Assembly (NCBI GenBank): GCA_051532055.1
Contig: JAOPTX010000089.1
Coordinates: forward strand, 1-12,085
Origin: Fibrobacterales bacterium
Lineage (GTDB): Bacteria > Fibrobacterota > Fibrobacteria > Fibrobacterales > JAOPTW01
Length of the DNA stretch: 12,085 bases
Reading direction: 5' to 3'
The stretch's first letter is position 1. Each line of letters begins with the position of its first letter. The position numbers and the translations under genes are program-made. This document shows, piece by piece, positions 1-12,072 of this stretch. The notes beneath the pieces were generated by a model. It saw only the letters and a list, made by a program, of their open reading frames with translations, did no database searches and was not told the DNA's origin.

Positions 1-50
1 TTGGTGTTCAAGAACTCTAAGTTTGCCCGTTTTCGTTCGTCCTTTGCCAT
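1..50 (-). CDS. 5' end of a divergent gene truncated by the window edge (MAKDERKRANLEFLNT...); candidate integrase/tyrosine recombinase by position only
   Basis: Minus-strand AAGGAGG (56-62) lies 5 nt before ATG at 50, and the frame is open to the window edge. Only 16 codons are visible, so the product is inferred from its position divergent from the first cassette. Confidence 0.6.
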   Translation of the reverse strand, partial: MAKDERKRANLEFLNT

Positions 51-70
51 TCTGTCCTCCTTTTGGTTTT

Positions 71-98
71 CCTAACTGTATCATTGTTTACAGTTAGG
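71..98. promoter_or_regulatory. Perfect inverted repeat, 10-bp arms with 8-bp spacer; candidate operator or recombinase-binding site
   Basis: CCTAACTGTA (71-80) / TCATTGTT / TACAGTTAGG (89-98), directly upstream of the divergent gene's RBS. Confidence 0.5.
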
Positions 99-109
99 TG
101 AGGGAGAGG

Positions 110-143
110 CTCTATCCCTATAATAGAGAACGTTGTGGGAAAT
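110..143 (+). other. attI-like primary recombination site (core GTTG at 132-135)
   Basis: ACGTTGTGGGAAAT fits the RC-GTTG-N6-AT cassette-start motif, and 132-141 is the exact reverse complement of 1459-1468. No attC-like left arm precedes it, unlike all later junctions. It contains TATAAT at 119-124. Confidence 0.6.
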
Positions 144-155
144 GGCTAACCTTTG

Positions 156-1385
156 TTAATATAAATCATTTCTGTATGGGCTATTATTTCCATCACAGGC
201 TTCTTCTTCATTAACTTTCTCAGATGAGAAAAACTTTGATTTTTTTGGAATGGTATATTCTGGATAACAAGCATCAGGTAAGTAATGTTGATTTAAACTT
301 AATTGGGATTCGATGAAATTCTCATGAAATTTTTCTGGAATTAATGAAAGTATATACCCGAAATAACAACCATAATAATATTCAGAAAACTCGAAAGAAG
401 CCCCTAAACATTGAGGAAAAATTTCAAATGGTTCGACGTTAATTAACAGTTTCGAAGCTATAGATGTGTAACTGCTTTCATTTTTATTTAACAATAGTTT
501 CAAGTGGAATGACTTTGATCTTTCTTGAGTATCAGTGATCATATCAATAGAATCGAGAGATAAGCTGTTTATTGTTTGGTAATTGTTGATATTGAAATCG
601 ATAATAGCAATAACTTTTTCATAAATTGATTTATGATTTGCCCAAAGATTTAATTCTTGTAATTTTAGTTTGCTTGAATCTAAGTTAATTCTATCTCGTT
701 GATACAATTCAAGATTAAGAAAATTTGCTAGCACATTTGGGTCACTATAATTATGTAAATGATATAGGCTTATTTTCATACTCTCGTTTAACAATGATTG
801 GCAATAATTATAACGGTTTTTATAACTGATTAAAGTAAATCCATGTTTTTGACTAAGGAAAGGTTGTGAATTGTAAAAACAAGTCAGAATTGATTTTACA
901 GAAATTAGACTATCAGGGATTGTTATAGGATTTGATAAATCTTTTAACCTGGGTTTTATGTCTGCCCTTTTTTCTAAATGATGGGCTAACGAAATTTGGT
1001 TTTTAATCAAATTATATGTTTTTACTAATCGTTTTTTAAAATGTAAATTTGGAAATTTTAATATTACTTCATTCCGTTTCACTAAAGGCGCTAGAAGCAT
1101 AACTGAACTAGTTGAATCGAAGAAAATTCGATGGAAATCGGCTGTTATTTTAATATATTCATCTGGGAAATCGGCTAATTTTAATTTTAATGCTTTATTA
1201 ATTTTATTATAACTCTTGAAATCACTCTGTTGTAGTTCATTAATTTTAAGCGAATCTTTAATACGAATGAATATTTTTTGAATATCAGATATTTGCTTTA
1301 TTTCATAGATTAATTTTTCGTCTTTAATATCAGGATAGCAATTTACAATAAAAACTATTGAAACATATATTAGGTAATTACGCAT
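156..1385 (-). CDS. Hypothetical protein, probable lipoprotein (cassette 1, reverse orientation)
   Basis: ORF of about 409 aa from ATG at 1385 (the track starts at TTG 1394). The N-terminus MRNYLIYVSIVFIVNC resembles a lipoprotein signal peptide. No recognisable domain. Confidence 0.75.
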   Translation of the reverse strand: MRNYLIYVSIVFIVNCYPDIKDEKLIYEIKQISDIQKIFIRIKDSLKINELQQSDFKSYNKINKALKLKLADFPDEYIKITADFHRIFFDSTSSVMLLAPLVKRNEVILKFPNLHFKKRLVKTYNLIKNQISLAHHLEKRADIKPRLKDLSNPITIPDSLISVKSILTCFYNSQPFLSQKHGFTLISYKNRYNYCQSLLNESMKISLYHLHNYSDPNVLANFLNLELYQRDRINLDSSKLKLQELNLWANHKSIYEKVIAIIDFNINNYQTINSLSLDSIDMITDTQERSKSFHLKLLLNKNESSYTSIASKLLINVEPFEIFPQCLGASFEFSEYYYGCYFGYILSLIPEKFHENFIESQLSLNQHYLPDACYPEYTIPKKSKFFSSEKVNEEEACDGNNSPYRNDLY

Positions 1386-1461
1386 TGGGCTCAAAAAAAG
1401 GAATATACAGGTTAATAAAGCTAATATTTTTTAGATCAATTTACGAATAATTTAAAACTTC

Positions 1462-1538
1462 CCACAACAAGCATAGCAGTCAACGTTTTTTTTATGCACT
1501 GAAGTGCAAAAACGCTGCCAACTCTGCAGACGTTGGGC
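1462..1538 (+). repeat. attC-like site 1 (77 bp, family A)
   Basis: CCACAAC...GTTGGGC with inner stems CGTTTTT/AAAAACG and TGCAC-TGAA-GTGCA. The inner 63 nt differ from site 7 at one position. Confidence 0.85.
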
Positions 1539-1716
1539 CCAATAGGTGATAGGATACAGAAGTAGATAGGGAAAGAAATTTATTTACATCGGTTAGTGCC
1601 ACGTCCTAGTGCCGTTATTTTAAGATTAAATAAATAAGGAATTTGGTTGGTAGAAAACAGGACTCGAAAATAGGGAGAATGTTAGTTACTTTTACTTGAA
1701 TACAAAAGAGGGCGAT

Positions 1717-3306
1717 ATGTATAAAATAGTAGTAAGTGTACTGGTATTCTTTATGCTAGCAAAAGGAACCTTTGCGAGCAGTATGATTGTGGGGGATAGC
1801 TCACTTCCTTATAGTATAATGAATGAATCTCAAGTGTGGGATGTAGATACAGTACATCTCTACAATTTAGTTTTATTCAAAGATTCAAATGAATTGACCA
1901 TCACTCCAGGTACAACAGTAATAATGCATAGTGATTCTGCACGTTTAGAGGTGTTTGGTCCAGGTTTTACGGCTGTTGGAACTAAAGAAGATTCAATCAT
2001 TTTTACAACTACTGATTCAAATTATATGGGGGGAGGGCTTCAAGCTTCTCAAAAAATTAGAATTGAATATTGTAAATTTGAATATCAAGAAAGTAATTCT
2101 AAAGATGGAATATTGTTTGCTAGTTCTAACCCATTAGATTCAATGATAATTAGACATTCACTTTTCCAAAATAACCTAGGTCGAAATGCAGTTTCTTTTT
2201 CAGGAAAAGCGTACCATCTGATTGAATCCAACACTTTTCGTAATAATACTCGAGCTATCAAAGTTGCAAATGCACCAAATACCTGGATACAAAATAACAC
2301 CTTTATTGAAAACAGCTCTACTCAGAGTGGCGGGGCTATTCTTATTGAAGGGAATGGTGACCCTTCTGGGTATTTTATCAATAACTGGTTTATTCGTAAT
2401 AAATCAGAGAAAACAGGTGGAGCTGTTCTCATTGAAGATCAGGGGACGGCTCACTTCTATGGTAACTACTTTGATGGTAATATGAGCAATGGCAGTGGCG
2501 GCGCAGCTGCGGCTATTAATGGTGGGGAGTTTATTTTTATCAACAATACTTTTGCCAATAATAGAGGGGGTAATAGTGGCGGCGCCTATTACGCAGATAT
2601 TGGATATGCTGCAATTATCAATTGCCTTTTTTATAACAATAGTGCGCGGGCCGATGGGGAAGAACTCTATGATAGAGTAGGAGGCACCCCACCAACAAAA
2701 TACAGTAAATTCTATTTAAGGGAAGATGGTGACCCTACTGCCGATAGTATGCGCCTTCATTTTGCTGCTACAGATGCTTATGAGTCTTATATTGATCGTG
2801 GTGTTCTCAATTTCGATACCGTTAGTTACCCAACTTATCATAATGGACTACCTCCAATCTACATGCCTTACTATGATATTAATGGCAATCCACGTGTAGC
2901 AGGAAAATCAATTGATCTTGGCGCTATTGAACTGGTTAATGATACACTATTGCCCGATACCAGTTGGTATAGTCAGATTCCAATCAATCTTAATGATACA
3001 ACTTCGTTGGTTGACTCTAATGTCACTTCAGTAGTAAGTTACTTATCAAAACAGGTTTTTACTGAGATTCATATTACCAACTACTCATCACATATTACTT
3101 TTGATTTAGAACCAGGAAGTGGAATTAGGGGTAGTGCAAATGGAGCACTGTATACATTGTTTGGAAAAAAAATAACAGGCCTTAAGAAAATATCTCAATC
3201 TAAGTGGTCACTGCAATCTCAATCAGTATCACATGGAGTATACTTGGTTGTTATCGAGTCTACTGCAGGAGTTATTTTAGCGCGACAGATGGTTTCGATT
3301 AAGTAA
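1717..3306 (+). CDS. Secreted right-handed parallel beta-helix repeat protein with choice-of-anchor Q-like motif and C-terminal secretion (T9SS-like) tail (cassette 2)
   Basis: GAGGG RBS before ATG 1717. Signal peptide ending in TFA. Repeated FxxN and GGA(I/V/A/Y) motifs. DINGNPRVAGKSIDLGAIE motif. C-terminal LYTLFGKKI...GVYLVVI beta-sandwich pattern. Confidence 0.8.
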   Translation: MYKIVVSVLVFFMLAKGTFASSMIVGDSSLPYSIMNESQVWDVDTVHLYNLVLFKDSNELTITPGTTVIMHSDSARLEVFGPGFTAVGTKEDSIIFTTTDSNYMGGGLQASQKIRIEYCKFEYQESNSKDGILFASSNPLDSMIIRHSLFQNNLGRNAVSFSGKAYHLIESNTFRNNTRAIKVANAPNTWIQNNTFIENSSTQSGGAILIEGNGDPSGYFINNWFIRNKSEKTGGAVLIEDQGTAHFYGNYFDGNMSNGSGGAAAAINGGEFIFINNTFANNRGGNSGGAYYADIGYAAIINCLFYNNSARADGEELYDRVGGTPPTKYSKFYLREDGDPTADSMRLHFAATDAYESYIDRGVLNFDTVSYPTYHNGLPPIYMPYYDINGNPRVAGKSIDLGAIELVNDTLLPDTSWYSQIPINLNDTTSLVDSNVTSVVSYLSKQVFTEIHITNYSSHITFDLEPGSGIRGSANGALYTLFGKKITGLKKISQSKWSLQSQSVSHGVYLVVIESTAGVILARQMVSIK

Positions 3307-3409
3307 TTATGAAGTGGATATTCGAACTAGGTAACAAAACCCTTTCTTGTGATTAAAGCCGATGTAAATAAATTTCTTAGGTGAGACATTATTGATAATC
3401 ACCTACTGG

Positions 3410-3487
3410 GCTCAACAAGCATAGCAGTCAACGTTTTTTCTATGCACTGAAGTGCAAAAAACGCTGCCAACTCTGCGAGCGTTGTAG
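3410..3487 (+). repeat. attC-like site 2 (78 bp, family A)
   Basis: GCTCAAC...GTTGTAG. Near-identical to sites 1 and 7, with one extra A and GAGC instead of AGAC before GTT. Confidence 0.85.
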
Positions 3488-3592
3488 CCAATTTAAAAAG
3501 GGACAGGTAAGTGCCTTTGGCAATAATTAGAAAAAACAAAGCCCAACTCTCCACCTAAAAAATCTCAAAACAGAATAAATACCAAGAATGCC

Positions 3593-3615
3593 GTTACCTT
3601 GGGGTAACCTTTTTT
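3593..3615 (+). promoter_or_regulatory. Palindrome GTTACC-TTGG-GGTAAC followed by a T-run; operator or intrinsic terminator upstream of the TIGR02147-like gene
   Basis: 6-bp perfect arms at 3593-3598 and 3603-3608, then T6 at 3610-3615. Confidence 0.4.
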
Positions 3616-3675
3616 CGTCTAATTCTATTGTAAGCCAATTTTAATATATATACCTTATGCAAGAGGTAAAAAACT

Positions 3676-4503
3676 ATGATAAATATTTTTGAATACACTG
3701 ACTATAAAAGCTTTCTAAGTGACTTTTACGAGTTTAAAAAAGGAGAAAACTCTAACTTCTCCTACCAAACCCTTGCTACTAAGGCGGGGTTTAAGAATAA
3801 AGGATTTGTGTATAATATTTTTAAAGGAAACAAAGGATTGTCAAAATCCAATATCTTTAAGTTAACACAGGCACTTAGCCTAAATAAAATAGAGACAGAA
3901 TACTTTGAAACACTCGTTACCTTTCAAAATGCAGAGTCTTTAGAGGAAAGGAATTTTCATTTTGAAAAAATGAATACACTTTATGCTAAAGGAATAGCTA
4001 AAGAGCCTTTGAGAATTAGACAAGATAAATTCGAATTATATTCAAATTGGCATCATTCAGTAATTAGGTCATTAATCGACATGTATCCATTTGAGGGTGA
4101 TTATAAATGGCTTTCAAAAAAGGTAAAGCCTTCCATTACAGTAAAAGAGGCAAAGGCTTCAGTTGCTCTATTAGAAAAGCTAGAACTTGTTGGAATAAAT
4201 AAGAACGGGAAATATGCTGTTAAAGATAAAAATATTACAACAGGTAAATCGGTACTTAGTTTAGCGGTTCAAAATTTCCATTTAGAATGTACTGAACTGG
4301 CAAAACAAGCCATTTTATATACACCCTCTACTAGGAGAAATATTACAGGACTAACTCTTGGTATTTCTGAAAAAGCTTATCACACAATTTGTGCTGAGAT
4401 ACAAGCTTTTCAAAAAAACATTATTAACATCGCAAATGCAGACATGAATTCAGATAAAGTGTACCAATTCAACTTTCACCTGTTTCCACTTTCTGAAGCT
4501 TAA
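3676..4503 (+). CDS. TIGR02147 family protein (Fibrobacter paralogous family, DUF4423-like, N-terminal HTH-like region) (cassette 3, gene 1)
   Basis: 275 aa. Characteristic IFEYTDYKSFLSDFYE start, FSYQTLATKAGF, YSNWHHSVIR, RRNITGLTLGIS and VYQFNFHLFPLS end. GAGG RBS. Confidence 0.9.
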   Translation: MINIFEYTDYKSFLSDFYEFKKGENSNFSYQTLATKAGFKNKGFVYNIFKGNKGLSKSNIFKLTQALSLNKIETEYFETLVTFQNAESLEERNFHFEKMNTLYAKGIAKEPLRIRQDKFELYSNWHHSVIRSLIDMYPFEGDYKWLSKKVKPSITVKEAKASVALLEKLELVGINKNGKYAVKDKNITTGKSVLSLAVQNFHLECTELAKQAILYTPSTRRNITGLTLGISEKAYHTICAEIQAFQKNIINIANADMNSDKVYQFNFHLFPLSEA

Positions 4504-4518
4504 CTAAAAGGACAAATC

Positions 4519-6270
4519 ATGAAACATACATTAAAATATCTTTACCCTTTACTACTATCACTATTTTTTACGTATTGCAGTATGGGGGAATCTAATCTTA
4601 CCGGTAATTCAACTCAAACGGGTAATCCTGAATTGGCAATGATACTCTATAATACTGATGGGACTGTAGCAGATAGTGCAACTGTCGAAGTTTATGAAAT
4701 TGAGAGTACTACAATCGCTTTTAAAACAGTTACTGATAGTAATGGCCAATACTCCCTTTCTGGTTTAAATGGAACGTATAATATTTGGGCATCAAAAGAT
4801 TCATTAGCTGCTTTTCAGGATTCAGTATATATCTTCTCGGATACAAATTATGTAAGAAGAGATACATTGAAATCCACTATACATGCACGAGGTAAAGTAG
4901 CATTGCAACCTGGGGATGATTTCCAGACTGTTACCGTGAATGTACTGGGGTCATATAAATTTGCAAATGTTGATTCATTAGGTTTCTTCACTTTATCAAA
5001 TATGCCCAAAGGTGAATATAATTTAAGATTCGAAACAACTCTTCCAAATTATACAACTACCTATTCACCTGTAACAATAGTTAGTGATACATCGTTCACA
5101 TATGTCGATCCTTTTGAGTTGATCTATACTGGTATTCCATTGGTTACAGGACTAATAGCTCAATATGATACTACTAGCGGTGTGATGACTGTTTCTTGGG
5201 ACTCGATATCATATCCTGGAATTCAAGAATACTTGGTTTATAGACAAGAAGATTCGGCAAAAACTATTGCTACAATCCCTGTAGGAAAAACTACAAGTAA
5301 TATTTTTAGTGATTCTCTTTATTCAGGTGATTTTCCGTATATTAATGATCAGTTATCTCATAACTTACAGTATAGAGTAAAAATACGGAATACTTTTGAT
5401 GAAGAGGGAGGGGTTAATGGGTATGCTCAAGCTACAGCAGTCCCCTCTCAACCATTGAGAGCTTTTGCAGGGAATGATATTCTTGTCCTTACAAATAGTG
5501 TTGTGAATTTACAAGGTTATGCAACTGGGTTAAGGGATATTGTAAAGTACGAGTGGGCATTTGGGTCTATGGATAATTTTGTTCAGACTAGTACAGGGGA
5601 TACAAATGTTGTTGCTCCAAGTACAGAGATAGATAACTATCCATGCTTTTTTCGAGTTACAAATAGTGATGGCATAATTGTCACTGACTCATTAATTCTA
5701 GATGTAGAGGGGATTATCGTTTCATCACATAGTTCAAATGAAATAGTTACTGAAGTATTTACTTTACAGGGGATGGCTTCATCAAATGTTACAGAAATTA
5801 GAGTTGAATTCATGGGGGTAACTGTAAGTGCAGTAAACAATTCAAATAGCTGGAGGGTTGATGTTGACTCTAGGATTGTATATCCAAGTTTTGAGACAGA
5901 AATTATAATTATAGGATTAAATGAATCAGAAGTGATTTCATCTAAATCAATGATAGTGTCAGTTAAAAATCAAGACCCAATAATAGGCAAGTGGTCTTGT
6001 TCTAAAAAATATGATCATTCAACAACGGCTAACGCCCCTGTAATTGATGAGTTCTTATCAAATGGTAGTCTAGGGCAAATTAATATATTTAATGGAGATC
6101 CTAAGTCATGGATGTTAAATGGAAAAGATTATTACTTATACGGAGCGTATAATGGCTTAATTACAATTTCACCTACTTTTCACAATTACAACCTTATGAG
6201 TTATACATTGAATAAAGACAATGCAAACTATGCAACAAGCAATTCAACTATAACATGTTCTAGAATGTAA
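4519..6270 (+). CDS. Lipoprotein with carboxypeptidase-regulatory-like domains, FN3-like, PKD-like and Ig-like beta-sandwich domains (cassette 3, gene 2)
   Basis: 583 aa. AAAGGA RBS, 15 nt after the previous stop. Signal ...LFFTYC then GNSTQTGN. TVTDSNGQYSLSGL.GTYNI and VDSLGFFTLSNMPKGEYNL repeats. AFAGND...IVKYEW PKD-like pattern. Confidence 0.8.
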   Translation: MKHTLKYLYPLLLSLFFTYCSMGESNLTGNSTQTGNPELAMILYNTDGTVADSATVEVYEIESTTIAFKTVTDSNGQYSLSGLNGTYNIWASKDSLAAFQDSVYIFSDTNYVRRDTLKSTIHARGKVALQPGDDFQTVTVNVLGSYKFANVDSLGFFTLSNMPKGEYNLRFETTLPNYTTTYSPVTIVSDTSFTYVDPFELIYTGIPLVTGLIAQYDTTSGVMTVSWDSISYPGIQEYLVYRQEDSAKTIATIPVGKTTSNIFSDSLYSGDFPYINDQLSHNLQYRVKIRNTFDEEGGVNGYAQATAVPSQPLRAFAGNDILVLTNSVVNLQGYATGLRDIVKYEWAFGSMDNFVQTSTGDTNVVAPSTEIDNYPCFFRVTNSDGIIVTDSLILDVEGIIVSSHSSNEIVTEVFTLQGMASSNVTEIRVEFMGVTVSAVNNSNSWRVDVDSRIVYPSFETEIIIIGLNESEVISSKSMIVSVKNQDPIIGKWSCSKKYDHSTTANAPVIDEFLSNGSLGQINIFNGDPKSWMLNGKDYYLYGAYNGLITISPTFHNYNLMSYTLNKDNANYATSNSTITCSRM

Positions 6271-6299
6271 TTGTAAATATTTGTCCCTTTTTAAACTGT

Positions 6300-6378
6300 C
6301 TACAACAGCCGAAGCACGCAAGCTTTTATCTATGCACTGAAGTGCAAAAAGCCTGCGTACATTCGCCAGACGTTGCCT
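6300..6378 (+). repeat. attC-like site 3 (79 bp, mosaic)
   Basis: CTACAAC-AGCCGAAGCACGCAAGCTTTT...AAAAGCCTGCGTACATTCGCCAGAC-GTTGCCT. The apical TGCACTGAAGTGCA is shared with family A, while the arms resemble sites 5 and 6. Confidence 0.85.
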
Positions 6379-6548
6379 GCAATTACAAGTGACTGAAAGT
6401 GTATTGGTAAAATATTTTCAAATGGTGCAGAAAGGCCCACGTCCTGTGGGCTGAATATATCTAAATCTTGAGTCCCTACTGGAATTGAACGTAAGTTTTC
6501 GTATATTTCTAATACAAGCTTTATCAATCATATTTTCTAGGGTTTATC

Positions 6549-7724
6549 ATGAAAACATTTTTATTACTTCTGCTCATTTTATCACTTCTTGCATGTAATG
6601 ATGAAACCACAGTTGCATCGGATCATAATGAATTATCATCAAGTAGTTCAATGATCAATACAAGTGTTCAACATGGTCTTATAAGTTCTGCACAATCTAT
6701 CTCAAGTGACTTTATTGATTTAGTTTCATCTAGTTTTAATTCAGAAAGCTCTGGTGTTACAATATCCACAGAATCTGGCACTAAGGAACACTATATAAGT
6801 TATAGTACAAATGATAATAACTCTTCATCGGAAGATGGTTACGCAAAGGGGGGAATAACAGGGAAATATGATCACTTATTTGCACATACTGCTAAATATC
6901 CAGATCCTGAAAAGACACTTTGTGAACAATTACCAGGTTATTTTAATTCTAATATTCGATTGGGAGGGGTTGCTGCATTTGGAGTGTCAAATAATGGAAC
7001 AATGTATTTATTAGATTCAAACAAACTAGATTATGGGCCGAAATGGAATTTATTTCGAGGTGATAAATATTTACGTAATCAGATAATTTCAGGTTATGAT
7101 CATGGGGATGGTGAGTATGAGATTGAATTTGAAAATGTAATTGACAAATTTGGGAACCTTAATGAGTCTAATATTGTTGTTCATTTTGAAAACAATAAAG
7201 TTGATAGTATTATTCCATGTCCTGCTAATAATAGTGATGAATGTGAATCCCTAGATATTATAGAGTGGAATGATATGGAGTATGAAGTGAAAAATTATCT
7301 GTCAATGAGTAGAATTAGACATGTTGGGAAAACAATAGAAAATGAATATTTGATTGTTTTAGAGGGAGTTTATCAAAGTTCAGAAGATCAATCGATTACA
7401 TTTTTCGGGAAACCTGGTGAATTAGTAATTGCAGCTCATTGGGAAAGTGAGTTAGGGGGTGGTTTTGAAGCATTTAGAATTGGTGATTTTCGGTACGAAA
7501 TGAAAAAAGAAGATGTTTATGATGATCAATGGTACTTAAAAGAATATTCTCTTAAAAAAATTAATATTAAAGATTACCTCGATAACGTAAAACCCCTAGA
7601 GTCAACGACTCAAAACCTTTATAATGTAGAAATAACAGATGAATTGCTTGGGTCTCTAGGATTTGATTGCAGTGAAAATATAACACGAAGAGAAAGAACT
7701 GGTTCTGTTATACCTTATATTTAA
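6549..7724 (+). CDS. Hypothetical lipoprotein with Ser-rich N-terminal linker (cassette 4)
   Basis: 391 aa. MKTFLLLLLILSLLAC lipobox, then a Ser-rich region and an acidic, probably beta-rich domain. Confidence 0.8.
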   Translation: MKTFLLLLLILSLLACNDETTVASDHNELSSSSSMINTSVQHGLISSAQSISSDFIDLVSSSFNSESSGVTISTESGTKEHYISYSTNDNNSSSEDGYAKGGITGKYDHLFAHTAKYPDPEKTLCEQLPGYFNSNIRLGGVAAFGVSNNGTMYLLDSNKLDYGPKWNLFRGDKYLRNQIISGYDHGDGEYEIEFENVIDKFGNLNESNIVVHFENNKVDSIIPCPANNSDECESLDIIEWNDMEYEVKNYLSMSRIRHVGKTIENEYLIVLEGVYQSSEDQSITFFGKPGELVIAAHWESELGGGFEAFRIGDFRYEMKKEDVYDDQWYLKEYSLKKINIKDYLDNVKPLESTTQNLYNVEITDELLGSLGFDCSENITRRERTGSVIPYI

Positions 7725-7760
7725 TTTGTCTAATAAAAAATAGATCAACAATATAGTCTT

Positions 7761-7804
7761 TCCCGCCACTCCACATCCCTGGTTGCGTGGCGGGAGCACC
7801 TTTT
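7761..7804 (+). terminator. GC-rich stem-loop downstream of the cassette 4 gene; possible terminator
   Basis: TCCCGCCAC (7761-7769) pairs with GTGGCGGGA (7787-7795). The T-tract is short and offset. Confidence 0.35.
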
Positions 7805-7851
7805 AAAAAAAATTCAAAATCAACAGTATCTCGTAAGTCACTTGTAACTGC

Positions 7852-8036
7852 AGGCAACAGGGTGAGCAAGCAATAACCGTTTCGTAAGTGAACTGCATTC
7901 AGCCGGTCGCTAAAGCTCCTCGTCCTCATGCAACCCAAGCAAAGCTAGGGAGTTCACTAACTCCACTTTTTAATCCAAAATCGTAAAGACCGATTTTGGA
8001 TTAAAATTACTGCCAACTGGCACCCGGACGTTGTAA
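7852..8036 (+). repeat. attC-like site 4 (185 bp, long branched type)
   Basis: AGGCAAC-AGGGTGAGCAAGCAATAA...TTACTGCCAACTGGCACCCGGAC-GTTGTAA. Internal branches include a perfect 16-bp stem (7968-7983/7991-8006) and a segment shared with site 6. Confidence 0.75.
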
Positions 8037-8321
8037 GACATTGGCACACAATCTAGAGGGGCCGTGTGGGCTAAAATTTAAAAAAATATAATCACAGCTC
8101 TGGCAGTTCGTTGCATTTTTTAAAGCCCACCTGACAAGTAGACTGAATCACTGGGCTTTCATATTGCATGACATTGCTTTCCTTTTAATTTGAAAGCAAT
8201 ACTCGCTTTGCTCGTGTCATGCAATATTCAGCCCTTTAAGCAGCTCACCCTCCCTGAATGTGTAGTTTAGTCAGGTGTAGTGGCTATTTGCCCCTCTAGC
8301 TTGGCACCAACGTCTTACAAC
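8030..8321. other. ORF-less, highly structured cassette 5 (possible ncRNA, promoter cassette or structural ssDNA element)
   Basis: Bounded by the inverted repeat 8030-8044/8307-8321. No ORF of 60 aa or more. Multiple nested stems, e.g. ATATTGCATGACA 8161-8173 with TGTCATGCAATAT 8215-8227. Confidence 0.7.
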
Positions 8322-8383
8322 AACCGTAGCACGCAATAGTTTCTTTTAATATGAAACTACTGCGTACTCCGGCCACGTTGTGC
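8315..8383 (+). repeat. attC-like site 5 (69 bp, shortest)
   Basis: TTACAAC-AACCGTAGCACGCAATAGTTTC-loop-GAAACTACTGCGTACTCCGGCCAC-GTTGTGC. Confidence 0.8.
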
Positions 8384-8395
8384 AATATTATTCAG

Positions 8396-8422
8396 TGGGA
8401 GCAAATAGTCGCTTCGCTCCCA
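8396..8422 (-). terminator. Stem-loop just after the stop of the reverse-oriented cassette 6 gene; possible terminator
   Basis: TGGGAGC (8396-8402) pairs with GCTCCCA (8416-8422), 13 nt past the stop codon at 8436. No clear U-tract. Confidence 0.3.
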
Positions 8423-8435
8423 GTGATTTTAAAAT

Positions 8436-10631
8436 TTAATTGAGAAGTAGTGGAGTTATTATTGTGGGTACAATGTTTTTATTTATGTAACTTATGTTAT
8501 CTAAGTAACCATCTCCCATTGCCCATCTCAAAGTATGTTGACCAGCAGGTATGTCGATCGTTTCAGTAAACCAAACTCCATTTTGCCCCAGGTATTGCCT
8601 TTGTGTAAGTGGTTTTTCGATGTCATTAATTAAGAACTTAGTTTCAACAAATTCAGGACTTCTGTTTCTAGAGTTGTCAAGTGGACCTATAACATGAAAA
8701 TTATTTTGCATCCATCTAAATGATAATTCGCCAGGTCCATAAACCTCAGCAGATACATATTGAGGGTCTGCAAATAAGTGGTCACAATTGGTGTCGTAAC
8801 TGTAGTCAACAGTGTATCCTTGGTTGTATAAAGCCATTCCACCGGTGGCTCCTGGTACAGGTAAAAATTCGATTTTATCATCAATTGAAAATGATAGGTA
8901 GGAATTGTCTAAAACTTGGTTTACTGGCGAACTATATAAGTAATTTGGTTCGTAAATATAGGGAGGGATTCTATGTTCATCTACTAATTTGGTTTGATGA
9001 ACATCAACTTCATATTTAGTTATAAATTCATTATATTGTTTTTGTCCGTGTCCATCTGTATATTCAAATTTTAAATAGACATCCATCATCATCTTAGGGC
9101 GCCCTATCACAGAATTTGCATAACTAGAGTATGTTGGATCTATTGCGATTATTTTTATTTCATCAAAAGGTTTAAGTGGTACCTCATCATAATCAATTCC
9201 ATATTCATTATGTTGTAAAATGCCCCACATTTCGTATGGTAACTTTTGGTTAATGGGTAGAGGGGATCTTGGGATACCAGTACTTCTACTAATTTCAGAG
9301 CTCATTTTGAATTTGTATTTCGCGTTTACTAATTTGTTACCTGATTCTGGGTTAATAACTAAATTACCACCTCCTACTGGGTCTTGAACATGTATGTAGT
9401 GTGTGTTTGTTCCTTTAACAACCACAAGTGTAGCTTTAGGTAAATCCTTTAATTTAAACAGACCTAGTTTTTTAATTTCTTCAGATTTTGCAACGTAGGG
9501 AATTTCAGCTTGATTGTCATAATTTGTTCCTAATATTGGAACGCTTGATTCAAAAGGTGTTGGTGATATGTTTTGAATGTTACCATCCAACTGTACTTTT
9601 GATTCTTTAAAATTAATTGTTGTATGGCCAGCGTATCTAGCAACTTTTGTAATTAGGTCTAAACCTCCAATTTTTTCACTTAAATCATTTTCTGTGACTT
9701 TTTCTAGTTTTTCTCTGAGCTTATCATAATCACTTGAAAGAGGAAGCATTTTAACAAATTGATTTTTAATGCCGTCAAGAGCCATTCCACCAACAAAAGG
9801 AACTAAATAGTCTCCGGCTTTCTTTAGGCCTGTGCCGATTACACCGTTAAACAGATCGTCATTATCATTTGTTGGGATAGGTTCTTTTATTGTACCTGTC
9901 ATTTGGATGTCATCAATACGAACTTTATTGGTTTCAAAATGAAATATTAAAGATTCATCGGTAATATCTTTTTCTTGATAATCTAAAGGAATATCAAGTA
10001 CAAACCATTTTTTCACAATGTTTTTATTAAGTACTTTTTTCTCGAGAGGCATTGTTTGTGTGTTATAATGGTGAGGAAGTCCCCAGTTTTCAGGTAATGA
10101 AAACTCTCCATGTCCAAGAAAATAATGATGATTTGAAAATGTATCGATGTCTTTTTTAATGGCAACTCGACTCTCTAATGTTTGTGCCTCAGTATCATCT
10201 ATGTAGTTATAAATATAATAGCGAAGGAGACCACGATATTTATTATATAAGACAAAATATGGCACGGCTTCCCTTATACCATGTTTGGTAAAGTCATTAG
10301 GATCTGAGTAAACTTCACTATTAGTTGAGTAATCCTTAGAATCAGTAACAAAGATACGGCGCGTATAAAGTGTCCATCCGTCAAGATTGTTTTCGGTCTC
10401 TTTTAGGCTAAAGTAACTATTATATCCGTCTTTTATGGTAGGTTTCCCAGTTGATTCCATACTATAGACATCACCCTGGTATGAATTAAATTCGTTCCAC
10501 CAGTTTGAATCCCACCATTTCCAACTATGGGAAGGATCGTGGTTAGCAAGCATTGCATTTGGAGGAATATAACCTGCATTTACGAAAGTAATAAGTTGAG
10601 TGAGAATGAAAAATATTATTGCTTTTTTCAT
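8436..10631 (-). CDS. Large secreted hypothetical protein with C-terminal beta-sandwich domain and hydrophobic PxIIxPLLLN tail (cassette 6, reverse orientation)
   Basis: AAGGA RBS precedes ATG 10631, giving 731 aa with signal peptide MKKAIIFFILTQLITFVNA. The track start at 10745 lies within the cassette terminal repeat. C-terminal GPGELSFRW...IPAGQHTLRW pattern. Confidence 0.8.
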   Translation of the reverse strand: MKKAIIFFILTQLITFVNAGYIPPNAMLANHDPSHSWKWWDSNWWNEFNSYQGDVYSMESTGKPTIKDGYNSYFSLKETENNLDGWTLYTRRIFVTDSKDYSTNSEVYSDPNDFTKHGIREAVPYFVLYNKYRGLLRYYIYNYIDDTEAQTLESRVAIKKDIDTFSNHHYFLGHGEFSLPENWGLPHHYNTQTMPLEKKVLNKNIVKKWFVLDIPLDYQEKDITDESLIFHFETNKVRIDDIQMTGTIKEPIPTNDNDDLFNGVIGTGLKKAGDYLVPFVGGMALDGIKNQFVKMLPLSSDYDKLREKLEKVTENDLSEKIGGLDLITKVARYAGHTTINFKESKVQLDGNIQNISPTPFESSVPILGTNYDNQAEIPYVAKSEEIKKLGLFKLKDLPKATLVVVKGTNTHYIHVQDPVGGGNLVINPESGNKLVNAKYKFKMSSEISRSTGIPRSPLPINQKLPYEMWGILQHNEYGIDYDEVPLKPFDEIKIIAIDPTYSSYANSVIGRPKMMMDVYLKFEYTDGHGQKQYNEFITKYEVDVHQTKLVDEHRIPPYIYEPNYLYSSPVNQVLDNSYLSFSIDDKIEFLPVPGATGGMALYNQGYTVDYSYDTNCDHLFADPQYVSAEVYGPGELSFRWMQNNFHVIGPLDNSRNRSPEFVETKFLINDIEKPLTQRQYLGQNGVWFTETIDIPAGQHTLRWAMGDGYLDNISYINKNIVPTIITPLLLN

Positions 10632-10746
10632 ATATATCCTTAAAGATTTGTTATTAGTATGTGTATTAGACGAATATGGTACTTGAATTGGGAATTTTTT
10701 TTCAAATCCGCTTCGCGCGATAAAGATACTCCCACTGAATAACATC

Positions 10747-10928
10747 GCACAACAGCCGAAGCAAGCAATTAACCTCTCCTCAATTCGTGTAGTTCAGCCG
10801 GTCGCTACGCTCCTCGGATTCACTACAACCCAAGCAAAGCCTGGAACTTATTGAGTCGTTTTGCTTCGCCATTTTCCTGAAAATGAAAATGACGGCAATT
10901 AACTGCTTACGTTCGGCAAGCGTTGAGT
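10747..10928 (+). repeat. attC-like site 6 (182 bp, long branched type)
   Basis: GCACAAC-AGCCGAAGCAAGCAATTAA...TTAACTGCTTACGTTCGGCAAGC-GTTGAGT. Shares TTCAGCCGGTCGCT and ACCCAAGCAAAGC with site 4. Confidence 0.78.
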
Positions 10929-11077
10929 ACAATACCAAAGAGCGAGACAGTATTTTAAGATATGAAGTATAGATCTGTATTTTAGATATATCGTTTTGAG
11001 GTATTCTTATGATAATACGCCAATATAATCCTAATTGATTTCTATAATTGATGGTGATTTTATGAAGTGAGTTCACT

Positions 11078-11896
11078 ATGTTAATTAGGTTTGTATTAAT
11101 AGTTATATGTGTTTTAACCATGAGTTGTTTTAAATCTGAGTCTGATTTGGGTGTAACTCAGGATACCGGAATACGCTTTAATTTTTTTGATTTGCCAAAT
11201 AATTATTTGGATAGTCTAAAATCAACATTGGAAAGTAATGATATAAATCAGTTAAATGATGTAGGATTAAAAAATTTACAGGTGTTTATTGAAAACAGTA
11301 TTATACAAGGAACTAGGTCAAATAATATATTAGGTAACTATTTTTGGTCTGTGCTCTATAATTTACCGGAATTTGTTGAGGAAAAGAATAACGGCTATTA
11401 CTGGGAATCCGAAAAACAGTTGATAAATGAAAAACTTAAATCTTATGCAATTTATCGTATAGCAAGAGATCAGAAAAATATTACAAGAATCTACGAAATA
11501 TTTAAACCATGGGTGGAATCTTTAGTTAGTAAAGAGTATGCAGATTCAATTGGTGTAACAAGTTTTATAACTCAACGAATTAGAGTACTTGATACTCTTC
11601 AAAAACTAGACTTTAAGAATCCATTCGATAATGTTAGTAATTTTTTAGATTCCGCGACTGGGGTATGGCGGCAAGTAGAAAATTCACATTATTATGACAC
11701 TGTAACAAATGGTAATGCTATGACTGCTGATGAATTGAACTATATGTTATATCAGGAGTTGGTAAAGTATAATACATCTTTTGAAGTTGTAAATTTGACG
11801 GGGTATGACTTTTGGTTTAGGAGATATCGGGAAGATAATATTGACGTGGTATATTCAATATTAAAAGATTTAGAACAATTGTTTTCTGATGAATGA
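11078..11896 (+). CDS. Hypothetical lipoprotein (cassette 7)
   Basis: 272 aa. MLIRFVLIVICVLTMSC lipoprotein-type signal. Probably helical, no recognised domain. Confidence 0.8.
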   Translation: MLIRFVLIVICVLTMSCFKSESDLGVTQDTGIRFNFFDLPNNYLDSLKSTLESNDINQLNDVGLKNLQVFIENSIIQGTRSNNILGNYFWSVLYNLPEFVEEKNNGYYWESEKQLINEKLKSYAIYRIARDQKNITRIYEIFKPWVESLVSKEYADSIGVTSFITQRIRVLDTLQKLDFKNPFDNVSNFLDSATGVWRQVENSHYYDTVTNGNAMTADELNYMLYQELVKYNTSFEVVNLTGYDFWFRRYREDNIDVVYSILKDLEQLFSDE

Positions 11897-11995
11897 CTTT
11901 TAGTTTTATATGAACTGTGTGAATTTTCATATATACTATTAAATATCGAGTTATCTATCATGAATATCACAGCTTCGCATGCTCTTTGGTACTAT

Positions 11996-12072
11996 ACTCA
12001 ACAAGCATAGCAGTCAACGTTTTTTCTATGCACTGAAGTGCAAAAACGCTGCCAACTCTGCAGACGTTGGTG
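11996..12072 (+). repeat. attC-like site 7 (77 bp, family A)
   Basis: ACTCAAC...GTTGGTG, near-identical to site 1. It is followed by GTTG-GTGGAC-AT, the start of an 8th cassette. Confidence 0.85.

Follow-up and report, generated by a model that had tools for sequence, protein, structure and literature searches.

The question raised by contig C89 of G000, the 5.17 Mb draft genome of a marine Fibrobacterales bacterium, is why each gene cassette in it should begin and end with its own long inverted repeat. The whole contig, 12,085 nt with 34% G+C, is the window of this account and, judged from its sequence, it is an integron-type cassette array. A preliminary description of the window had proposed that the repeats would lengthen the hairpin of the attC recombination site once a cassette had been excised as a circle, and had also read them as a trace of how cassettes are made, with one end templated from the other. 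Our analyses led us to consider it probable, with real room for doubt, that the paired cassette ends (arms) would be the two halves of a selected 22-bp outer helix belonging to an enlarged attC.

The array and the ends of its cassettes

The window was called an integron-type array because it contains a series of attC sites and because a canonical integron integrase (IntI) is encoded on another contig, C108, of the genome. The gene-sized units of the window are separated by seven imperfect palindromes in direct orientation, with CAAC...GTTG as their bounds; five are 61-71 nt long and two 174-177 nt. Such palindromes of about 55-180 nt with ...AAC and GTT... ends, lying between genes in one orientation, are likewise the mark of classical integrons (class 1 and the Vibrio VCR arrays). 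The attC stem had compensated changes at 7 of 11 predicted pairs, and a scan with covariance model R1, built from 17 attC sites, found about 31 sites on about 15 contigs of G000. Cassette 5 proved to have a copy on contig C100 (L007, 10107-10398) that is 98.6% identical over 292 bp; since the two copies share the downstream core (63/63 nt) and differ in their upstream cores, the homology stopping at GTTG, the crossover was placed within the 3' box at G|TT, its canonical site, with the attC travelling at the 3' end of its cassette. Classical integrons share this crossover, and in them too the beginning of a cassette is complementary to the inverse core that the cassette has at its 3' end.

All seven pairs of end repeats listed in the preliminary description were recovered, each at the position and with the number of matches given there. 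A left arm starts with the G of the upstream attC's GTT, and a right arm ends with the last base (C) of AAC in the attC that belongs to the same cassette; with one gap allowed, the ends of cassette 5 gave 28 matches in 33 aligned columns. The cognate arm pairs in the window scored 10-20.5, as against a median of 4.0 and a 95th percentile of 8.0 for 420 non-cognate pairings of left and right arms, in which high scores came only from cassettes of a common arm family. When neighbouring site pairs were first defined by the model, 15 of 21 scored at least 10, and several of the low-scoring pairs had their true partner at an attC variant that the model had missed; the final table comprised 28 cassettes genome-wide, and one scoring scheme was applied to all sets. 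Cassette-specific end complementarity as such is shared with classical integrons.

The length of a repeat alone was not significant, because un-anchored and CAA/TTG-anchored repeats of comparable quality occur. Genome-wide, repeats of at least 17/20 filled 102 rows when anchored on CAA/TTG and 98 rows when anchored on GTT/AAC, and within the window an un-anchored repeat (7180-7202 / 9921-9943, 22/23) spans from the coding region of cassette 4 to that of cassette 6 and is probably due to chance in A/T-rich DNA, though it matches some real arms in quality. The significance of the arms therefore rests on their exact anchoring and on their tiling of the array from attC to attC. A transposon or miniature inverted-repeat transposable element with terminal inverted repeats was also considered and rejected, the units standing head to tail, split only by attC cores and ending in GTTG...CAAC; no target-site duplications were seen at the cassette ends.

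It had been stated that the repeats differ between cassettes, which was true inside the window and gave way genome-wide, where the 28 cassettes reduce to 14 arm families at 70% identity. This sharing made it possible to follow up the prediction that cassette 8, which is cut by the contig end, would finish in approximately ...CCTAC-GTCCAC-CAAC. A cassette on contig C136 has the last 20 bases of the window as its left arm and a right arm that ends ...CCTACGATCCACCAAC, and the genome holds ten right arms of this family; the prediction was borne out at family level only.

Over the window's attC family in the genome the end complementarity had a median of 23 aligned nt (range 10-33, n = 28), compared with a median of 11 (range 4-15, n = 25) in a Vibrio VCR array of 26 sites (L162), where a single pair of the 25 reached 14; the Mann-Whitney test of the two gave p = 1.7e-9 for cassettes that are not independent of one another. 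Pairs measured by eye were shorter as well: 12, 8 (12 of 13) and 12 bp in three class 1 cassettes on a plasmid; 8, 9 and 10 bp in three cassettes from an array of another Fibrobacterota genome; and 10, 7, 9 and 9 bp in four from a second attC family of G000 that stands beside the canonical IntI, where a fifth pair gave 5, possibly owing to a missing site. In two more Vibrio loci (L164 and L166) the regular expression missed sites and several pairs scored 4, leaving only pairs of at least 8.5 (9-11 aligned nt) as informative, and loci of Kangiella (L142, L143) and Fibrobacterota (L152, L150) were left out as controls: L142 and L152 had no clear array, L143 was covered by a scan for anchored repeats only, and the repeat structure of L150 resisted confident parsing. 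As had been anticipated, the window family is set apart, its stems being about twice as long as those of the classical arrays measured, with none of the classical cassette sets measured approaching stems of about 20 bp. Expressed as an outer helix, this is 22 bp as against 9-13 bp for most VCR cassettes, 8-12 bp for class 1 and 7-10 bp for the canonical family of G000. The R box of attC is 7 bp in the textbook account, as given in PMC5371416. The figure of about 7 bp adopted earlier for the complementarity of classical cassettes was too low, the measured values running from 7 to 13 bp.

A predicted helix divided between cassette ends

Alignment of the arms of the 28 cassettes defined a helix of 22 bp, counted from the G of GTT. 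All 28 cassettes have GTTG at positions 1-4; pairing at positions 5-10 and 13-22 is seen in 20-28 of them, with three or four base-pair types at each position; and at position 23 pairing is down to 13 of 28. Between the two variable stretches, position 11 has an A on the left arm and a G on the reverse-complemented right arm in every one of the cassettes, a combination that makes a T.G wobble in the bottom strand and, in the top strand, an A.C mismatch, and position 12 is invariably T (28/28). Three cassettes have one extra right-arm base adjoining positions 11-12. These two invariant positions distinguish the window family from classical integrons; in G001, a genome of the same genus, four cassettes had long stems, and three of these four shared the A/G difference of position 11. 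Elsewhere within positions 5-22 the mismatches leaned in the same direction, with 22 of the bottom-wobble and 6 of the top-wobble type (binomial p = 0.0037, an overstated significance as the cassettes are related). Within arm families, 44 differences were compensated on both arms, compared with 10 in which both arms had changed and the pair was lost, and in the C46/C47/C115 family there were 7 compensated changes and no uncompensated ones.

Crossover takes place between the G and TT at the 3' end of attC, as it does in integron cassettes generally, and while a cassette is integrated the distal strand of its helix, lying outside the crossover, would thus be found at the opposite (5') end. Split in this way by the crossover, the helix proposed here would be complete only in the excised circle, where alone its two halves would meet. 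Selection would keep it paired, with the T.G wobble held fixed at position 11 of the bottom strand. The helix may ensure that the bottom strand of the free circle, when single-stranded, folds dependably, may offer the recombinase a duplex arm of full length to bind, about 11 bp from the cleavage site out to the wobble, and may favour insertion of the circle over excision from the array; the wobble at position 11 could mark the reactive strand, and the enzyme using the site would be a neighbouring IntI-like recombinase that lacks the IntI insertion. Function is preferred here to a neutral scar because the helix has a fixed length, its arms covary, the wobble and the neighbouring T are constant, and bottom-strand wobbles are in excess. 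A partial parallel exists in XerCD recombination at CTX phage, in which a Xer enzyme uses a folded single-stranded attP hairpin that mimics a duplex site with full-length arms; the CTX system differs in that it is a phage integration at dif, without a cassette array or an attC-like two-box site.

The proposal that the attC hairpin would be lengthened by the arms once the cassette is a circle was sustained by folding in silico with DNA parameters (n = 21), which gave the bottom strand of circular junctions a mean of -39.2 kcal/mol as against -23.7 kcal/mol in array context. The top strand of the circular junctions averaged -31.6 kcal/mol and folded less well than the bottom strand in 21 of 21; the bottom strand is also the better folder in classical integrons. 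In the predicted minimum-energy folds of s3, s5, C100_new and C46a, single-base bulges fell on the AAC-bearing arm of the bottom strand, whereas a class 1 control folded likewise had a T bulge on the other, GTT-bearing arm (the VCR folds were uninterpretable). The GTT-bearing arm of the folded bottom strand is where extrahelical bases are expected in an integron attC, which also has an unpaired central spacer. The strand preferences bear also on whether the ends might act at the RNA level instead, by pairing in a transcript or by serving as terminators or insulators between cassettes. Terminator-like hairpins are indeed present in the end modules (e.g., at 7762-7794 and 6434-6452), but the arms are 0.3-3.8 kb apart, the sense (top) strand of plus-strand genes has the A.C mismatches and folds about 7.6 kcal/mol worse on average, and Rfam returned two matches only, both far below their gathering scores, so that no family stood above threshold. 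We regard an RNA-level role as scarcely credible.

The members of an arm family are alike at their ends only, in end modules of about 85-100 nt, and their cargo is unrelated. For instance, cassette 4 and cassettes on C45 and C141 are alike over the left ~84 nt (82-92%) and the right ~90-100 nt (83-87%) and have unrelated interiors. Arms and modules being common to unrelated cargo, the arms pre-date the cargo and are not relics unique to a cassette. The same facts could be met by simple descent, in which all cassettes derive from a unit of about 250-300 nt without an open reading frame (ORF), made up of right module, attC and left module, into which cargo was swapped; the complementarity would then be inherited, perhaps refreshed by hairpin repair, and have no role in recombination. 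Such a scaffold would account for the likeness of the C89, C45 and C141 cassettes at both ends without interior homology, for the existence of cassette 5 (292 bp, no ORF) in two copies, and for the recurrence of hairpin motifs in left and right modules of different arm families. It leaves unexplained, however, why pairing at variable positions has been kept in 14 diverged arm families and why the wobble is constant. As it is compatible with a selected helix and competes with it only over whether the helix has a function, it is in that respect that we think it unlikely. That shared end modules occur together with an ORF-less cassette suggests that new cassettes arise by cargo exchange in an existing scaffold, which is compatible with the selected helix as well.

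Cassette 5 itself, whose interior has further inverted repeats, might represent an "empty" scaffold or else encode a small RNA. Two kinds of hairpin recur in the end modules. A small one, CCCAC-GTCCT-GTGGG, lies 60-90 nt inside the left ends of cassettes of different arm families (window 6434-6452 and 1596-1613; C45, C47, C72, C136 and C141; G001, L159 8822-8845) and often precedes an A/T-rich run, and terminator-like hairpins with the loop motif CATCCCTG are found near right ends, such as that at window 7762-7794.

The suggestion that each cassette's repeat was templated at its creation would make the arms relics of cassette genesis, one end having been copied from the other by fold-back or template switch and left as a neutral, decaying scar. 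It has the merit that arm sequences are widely different between families, yet each pair matches; moreover, the second tier of cassette 2 (20/20) and the 33-nt pairing of cassette 5 resemble recent copying and not slow selection, and 50 one-sided differences within arm families fit decay. The suggestion fared poorly all the same against arms that are common to unrelated cargo and, with their modules of about 85-100 nt, older than it, against a single architecture with 44 compensated differences, and against the constant A/G of position 11, which is the opposite of what faithful copying of an arm would leave in 28 of 28. Nor does it account for the common end of the helix at position 22, for the 22-to-6 excess of bottom-strand wobbles, or for compensated changes between close arms, such as the 7 versus 0 of the C46/C47/C115 family. 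A relic of genesis is, in our estimate, very unlikely, and the selected outer helix remains the reading that we prefer.

Recombinases and the weight of the evidence

Which enzyme might use such a site? In both G000 (C46:14354-15448) and G001 (C3:16982-18061) a tyrosine recombinase of 364 aa is encoded divergently about 186 nt from the first cassette of the window's attC family, with 56% identity between the two. It is like IntI in being a tyrosine recombinase and in its divergent placement at the first cassette, as intI is placed, and its HxxR motif and C-terminal tyrosine are among the invariant columns of an alignment (A2). It is unlike IntI in other respects. Against the IntI model TIGR02249 the C46 protein scored 183.6 bits, under the cut-off of 265, and aligned in two stretches that skip model positions 180-237; against the XerA-like model NF040815 it scored 230.2 bits, just over the cut-off of 220; and in alignment A2 it is without the insertion of about 40 residues that is present in the canonical IntI of C108. 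It has, in addition, an extra N-terminal part of about 100 residues. Of 296 genomes from the phylum, two had the C46 type, and among the matches listed from 5.8 billion proteins four full-length relatives of at least 55% identity were present, the C46 protein itself counted.

The canonical IntI of G000, on C108 (372 bits with TIGR02249, cut-off 265), sits apart from the window's family, as does that of G001, beside another attC family or on another contig, and no integrase with the IntI-specific insertion was found adjacent to the window's attC family. The integron of C108 (L017, 7906-9270 and 9822-10357) extends to C32, C157, C31, C74 and C30; its IntI, 454 aa long, is extended at the N-terminus by about 135 residues, and the integron has its own 114-nt attC family, in which the cassette ends match over only 7-10 bp. 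The IntI insertion is reportedly what reads the extrahelical bases of attC, from the structure of a VCR-IntI complex. A possible extension of the selected helix, which we put forward tentatively and consider doubtful as a whole, is that the window belongs to a second, parallel integron-type system whose recombinase never had, or has lost, the IntI insertion. The 22-bp helix and the wobble would compensate for its absence, the system would be a living intermediate between Xer and integron recombination, and the empty scaffold would show how cassettes are made by cargo exchange.

Several points tell against the selected helix and its proposed user. The stems of cassette 1 and of the cassette at C100:12054 extend over 10-14 nt only, and by the 50 one-sided differences counted above many stems are decaying. 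The perfect 20-bp second tier of cassette 2 is unexplained by a helix of fixed 22 bp; it is located behind an internal loop of 22/19 nt beyond the main arms and is absent from the arm-family mates of the cassette. As to the enzyme, both genomes also encode a canonical IntI (C108, 372 bits; G001:C27, 287 bits), the window contig can be linked to neither recombinase platform, and the notion of an 11-bp binding arm is drawn from what is generally known of tyrosine recombinases. Selection for pairing was deduced from related cassettes of two genomes, and copying between arms could produce the same pattern. Lastly, no circular junction or clean excision product was seen in the contigs of one sequencing run, which are uninformative either way.

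Surroundings of the array and its significance

The features of the window are collected in Table 1.

Table 1. Cassettes, attC cores and insertion sequence end of the 12,085-nt window
Feature	Position	Strand	Remarks
IS110-family insertion sequence, right end, within the attC that precedes cassette 1	1..131	-	transposase gene from 50 off the contig
Cassette 1	132..1468	+	arms 132-143 / 1457-1468, 11/12, shortest stem in the window; one ORF, 156-1394, minus strand
attC core s1, AAC to GTT, 69 nt	1466..1534	+	model R1 86.1 bits
Cassette 2	1532..3416	+	arms 1532-1550 / 3398-3416, 17/19; second tier 1573-1592 / 3359-3378
attC core s2, 70 nt	3414..3483	+	model R1 79.8 bits
Cassette 3, two ORFs	3481..6306	+	arms 3481-3505 / 6282-6306, 23/25
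attC core s3, 71 nt	6304..6374	+	model R1 90.9 bits
Cassette 4	6372..7858	+	arms 6372-6394 / 7836-7858, 22/23
attC core s4, long variant, 177 nt	7856..8032	+	regular expression and BLAST; missed by model R1
Cassette 5, 292 bp, no ORF	8030..8321	+	arms 8030-8044 / 8307-8321, 14/15, plus 8053-8062 / 8290-8299, 10/10
attC core s5, 61 nt	8319..8379	+	model R1 62.4 bits
Cassette 6, ORF on minus strand	8377..10753	+	arms 8377-8401 / 10729-10753, 23/25
attC core s6, long variant, 174 nt	10751..10924	+	regular expression and BLAST
Cassette 7	10922..12002	+	arms 10922-10943 / 11981-12002, 20/22
attC core s7, 69 nt	12000..12068	+	model R1 86.5 bits
Cassette 8, left arm, cut at contig end	12066..12085	+	identical to C136:111-130

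The two long attC variants, s4 and s6, have a common internal segment, GTTCAGCCGGTCGCTA...GCTCCTCG...CAACCCAAGCAAAGC, that is also present in long sites on C100, C45, C141, C47, C72 and C33, and on this comparison the insert is best taken as a conserved element and not a random loop. Four of the seven cassette proteins tested had no Pfam match (window 156-1394, 6549-7724, 8436-10631 and 11078-11896); the other three were a NosD-like beta-helix protein, a DUF4423 protein and a protein with a CarboxypepD_reg domain.

The insertion sequence (IS) at the left edge of the window has copies or ends in G000 at window 1-131, C122:77-1849, C136:1-110 and C46:18944-18967. Its ORF on C122 matched DEDD_Tnp_IS110 (PF01548, 52.5 bits) and Transposase_20 (PF02371, 53 bits), and three cassettes with different left arms, at window 132, C136:111 and C122:1850, follow directly on its right end. 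The element is inserted in attC sites just short of the GTT, by a few bases, and always in one orientation. A DEDD transposase with Transposase_20 and site-specific insertion in attC (C122, C46, C136 and the window) liken it to what we take to be the IS1111-attC group of the IS110 family, the difference being the host, a Fibrobacterales bacterium. This likeness concerns window 1-131 only and not the end repeats; the non-coding end of the element contains a hairpin at 71-98.

The window's attC family occurred in 2 of the 41 genomes of the relatives search, namely G000 itself and G001. A loose IUPAC pattern run over genome contigs gave 118 stretches, and of 80 loci rescanned with model R1 a single one (L062, which is G001) was a real match; in metagenome contigs, where a stricter pattern gave six loci, none of the six matched the model and the scan yielded no member of the family. 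An energy-based de novo attC finder was dropped, raw minimum free energy being biased to long segments. The sequencing run mentioned above, probably from the source sample and covered through its contigs only, had three joints relative to the window. One, 7854 -> 11999, is the arrangement of contig C45, and the other two have sides of less than 30 and depths of 13-20 as against about 480.

No paper describing extended complementarity of cassette ends was found in a literature search that took in parts of PMC5737381, PMC5371416 and PMC3053210 and lay outside most subscription papers; the passages of PMC3053210 covered say nothing on stem length. The arrays appear to represent an uncommon form of the integron system of gene capture, one seemingly under selection, in which a 22-bp helix, as if designed to be split between cassette ends, is present throughout a family, as against the 7-bp R box of the textbooks. 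A full recombination site that exists only in the free circle would give the system a built-in asymmetry between excision and insertion. Its shared end modules and ORF-less cassette together offer a tangible starting point for the unsettled question of how cassettes form, and tools that require a canonical IntI would label arrays such as these as integrase-less. The presence of a recombinase without the IntI insertion beside an attC family, finally, bears on the origin of integron integrases from Xer-like enzymes.

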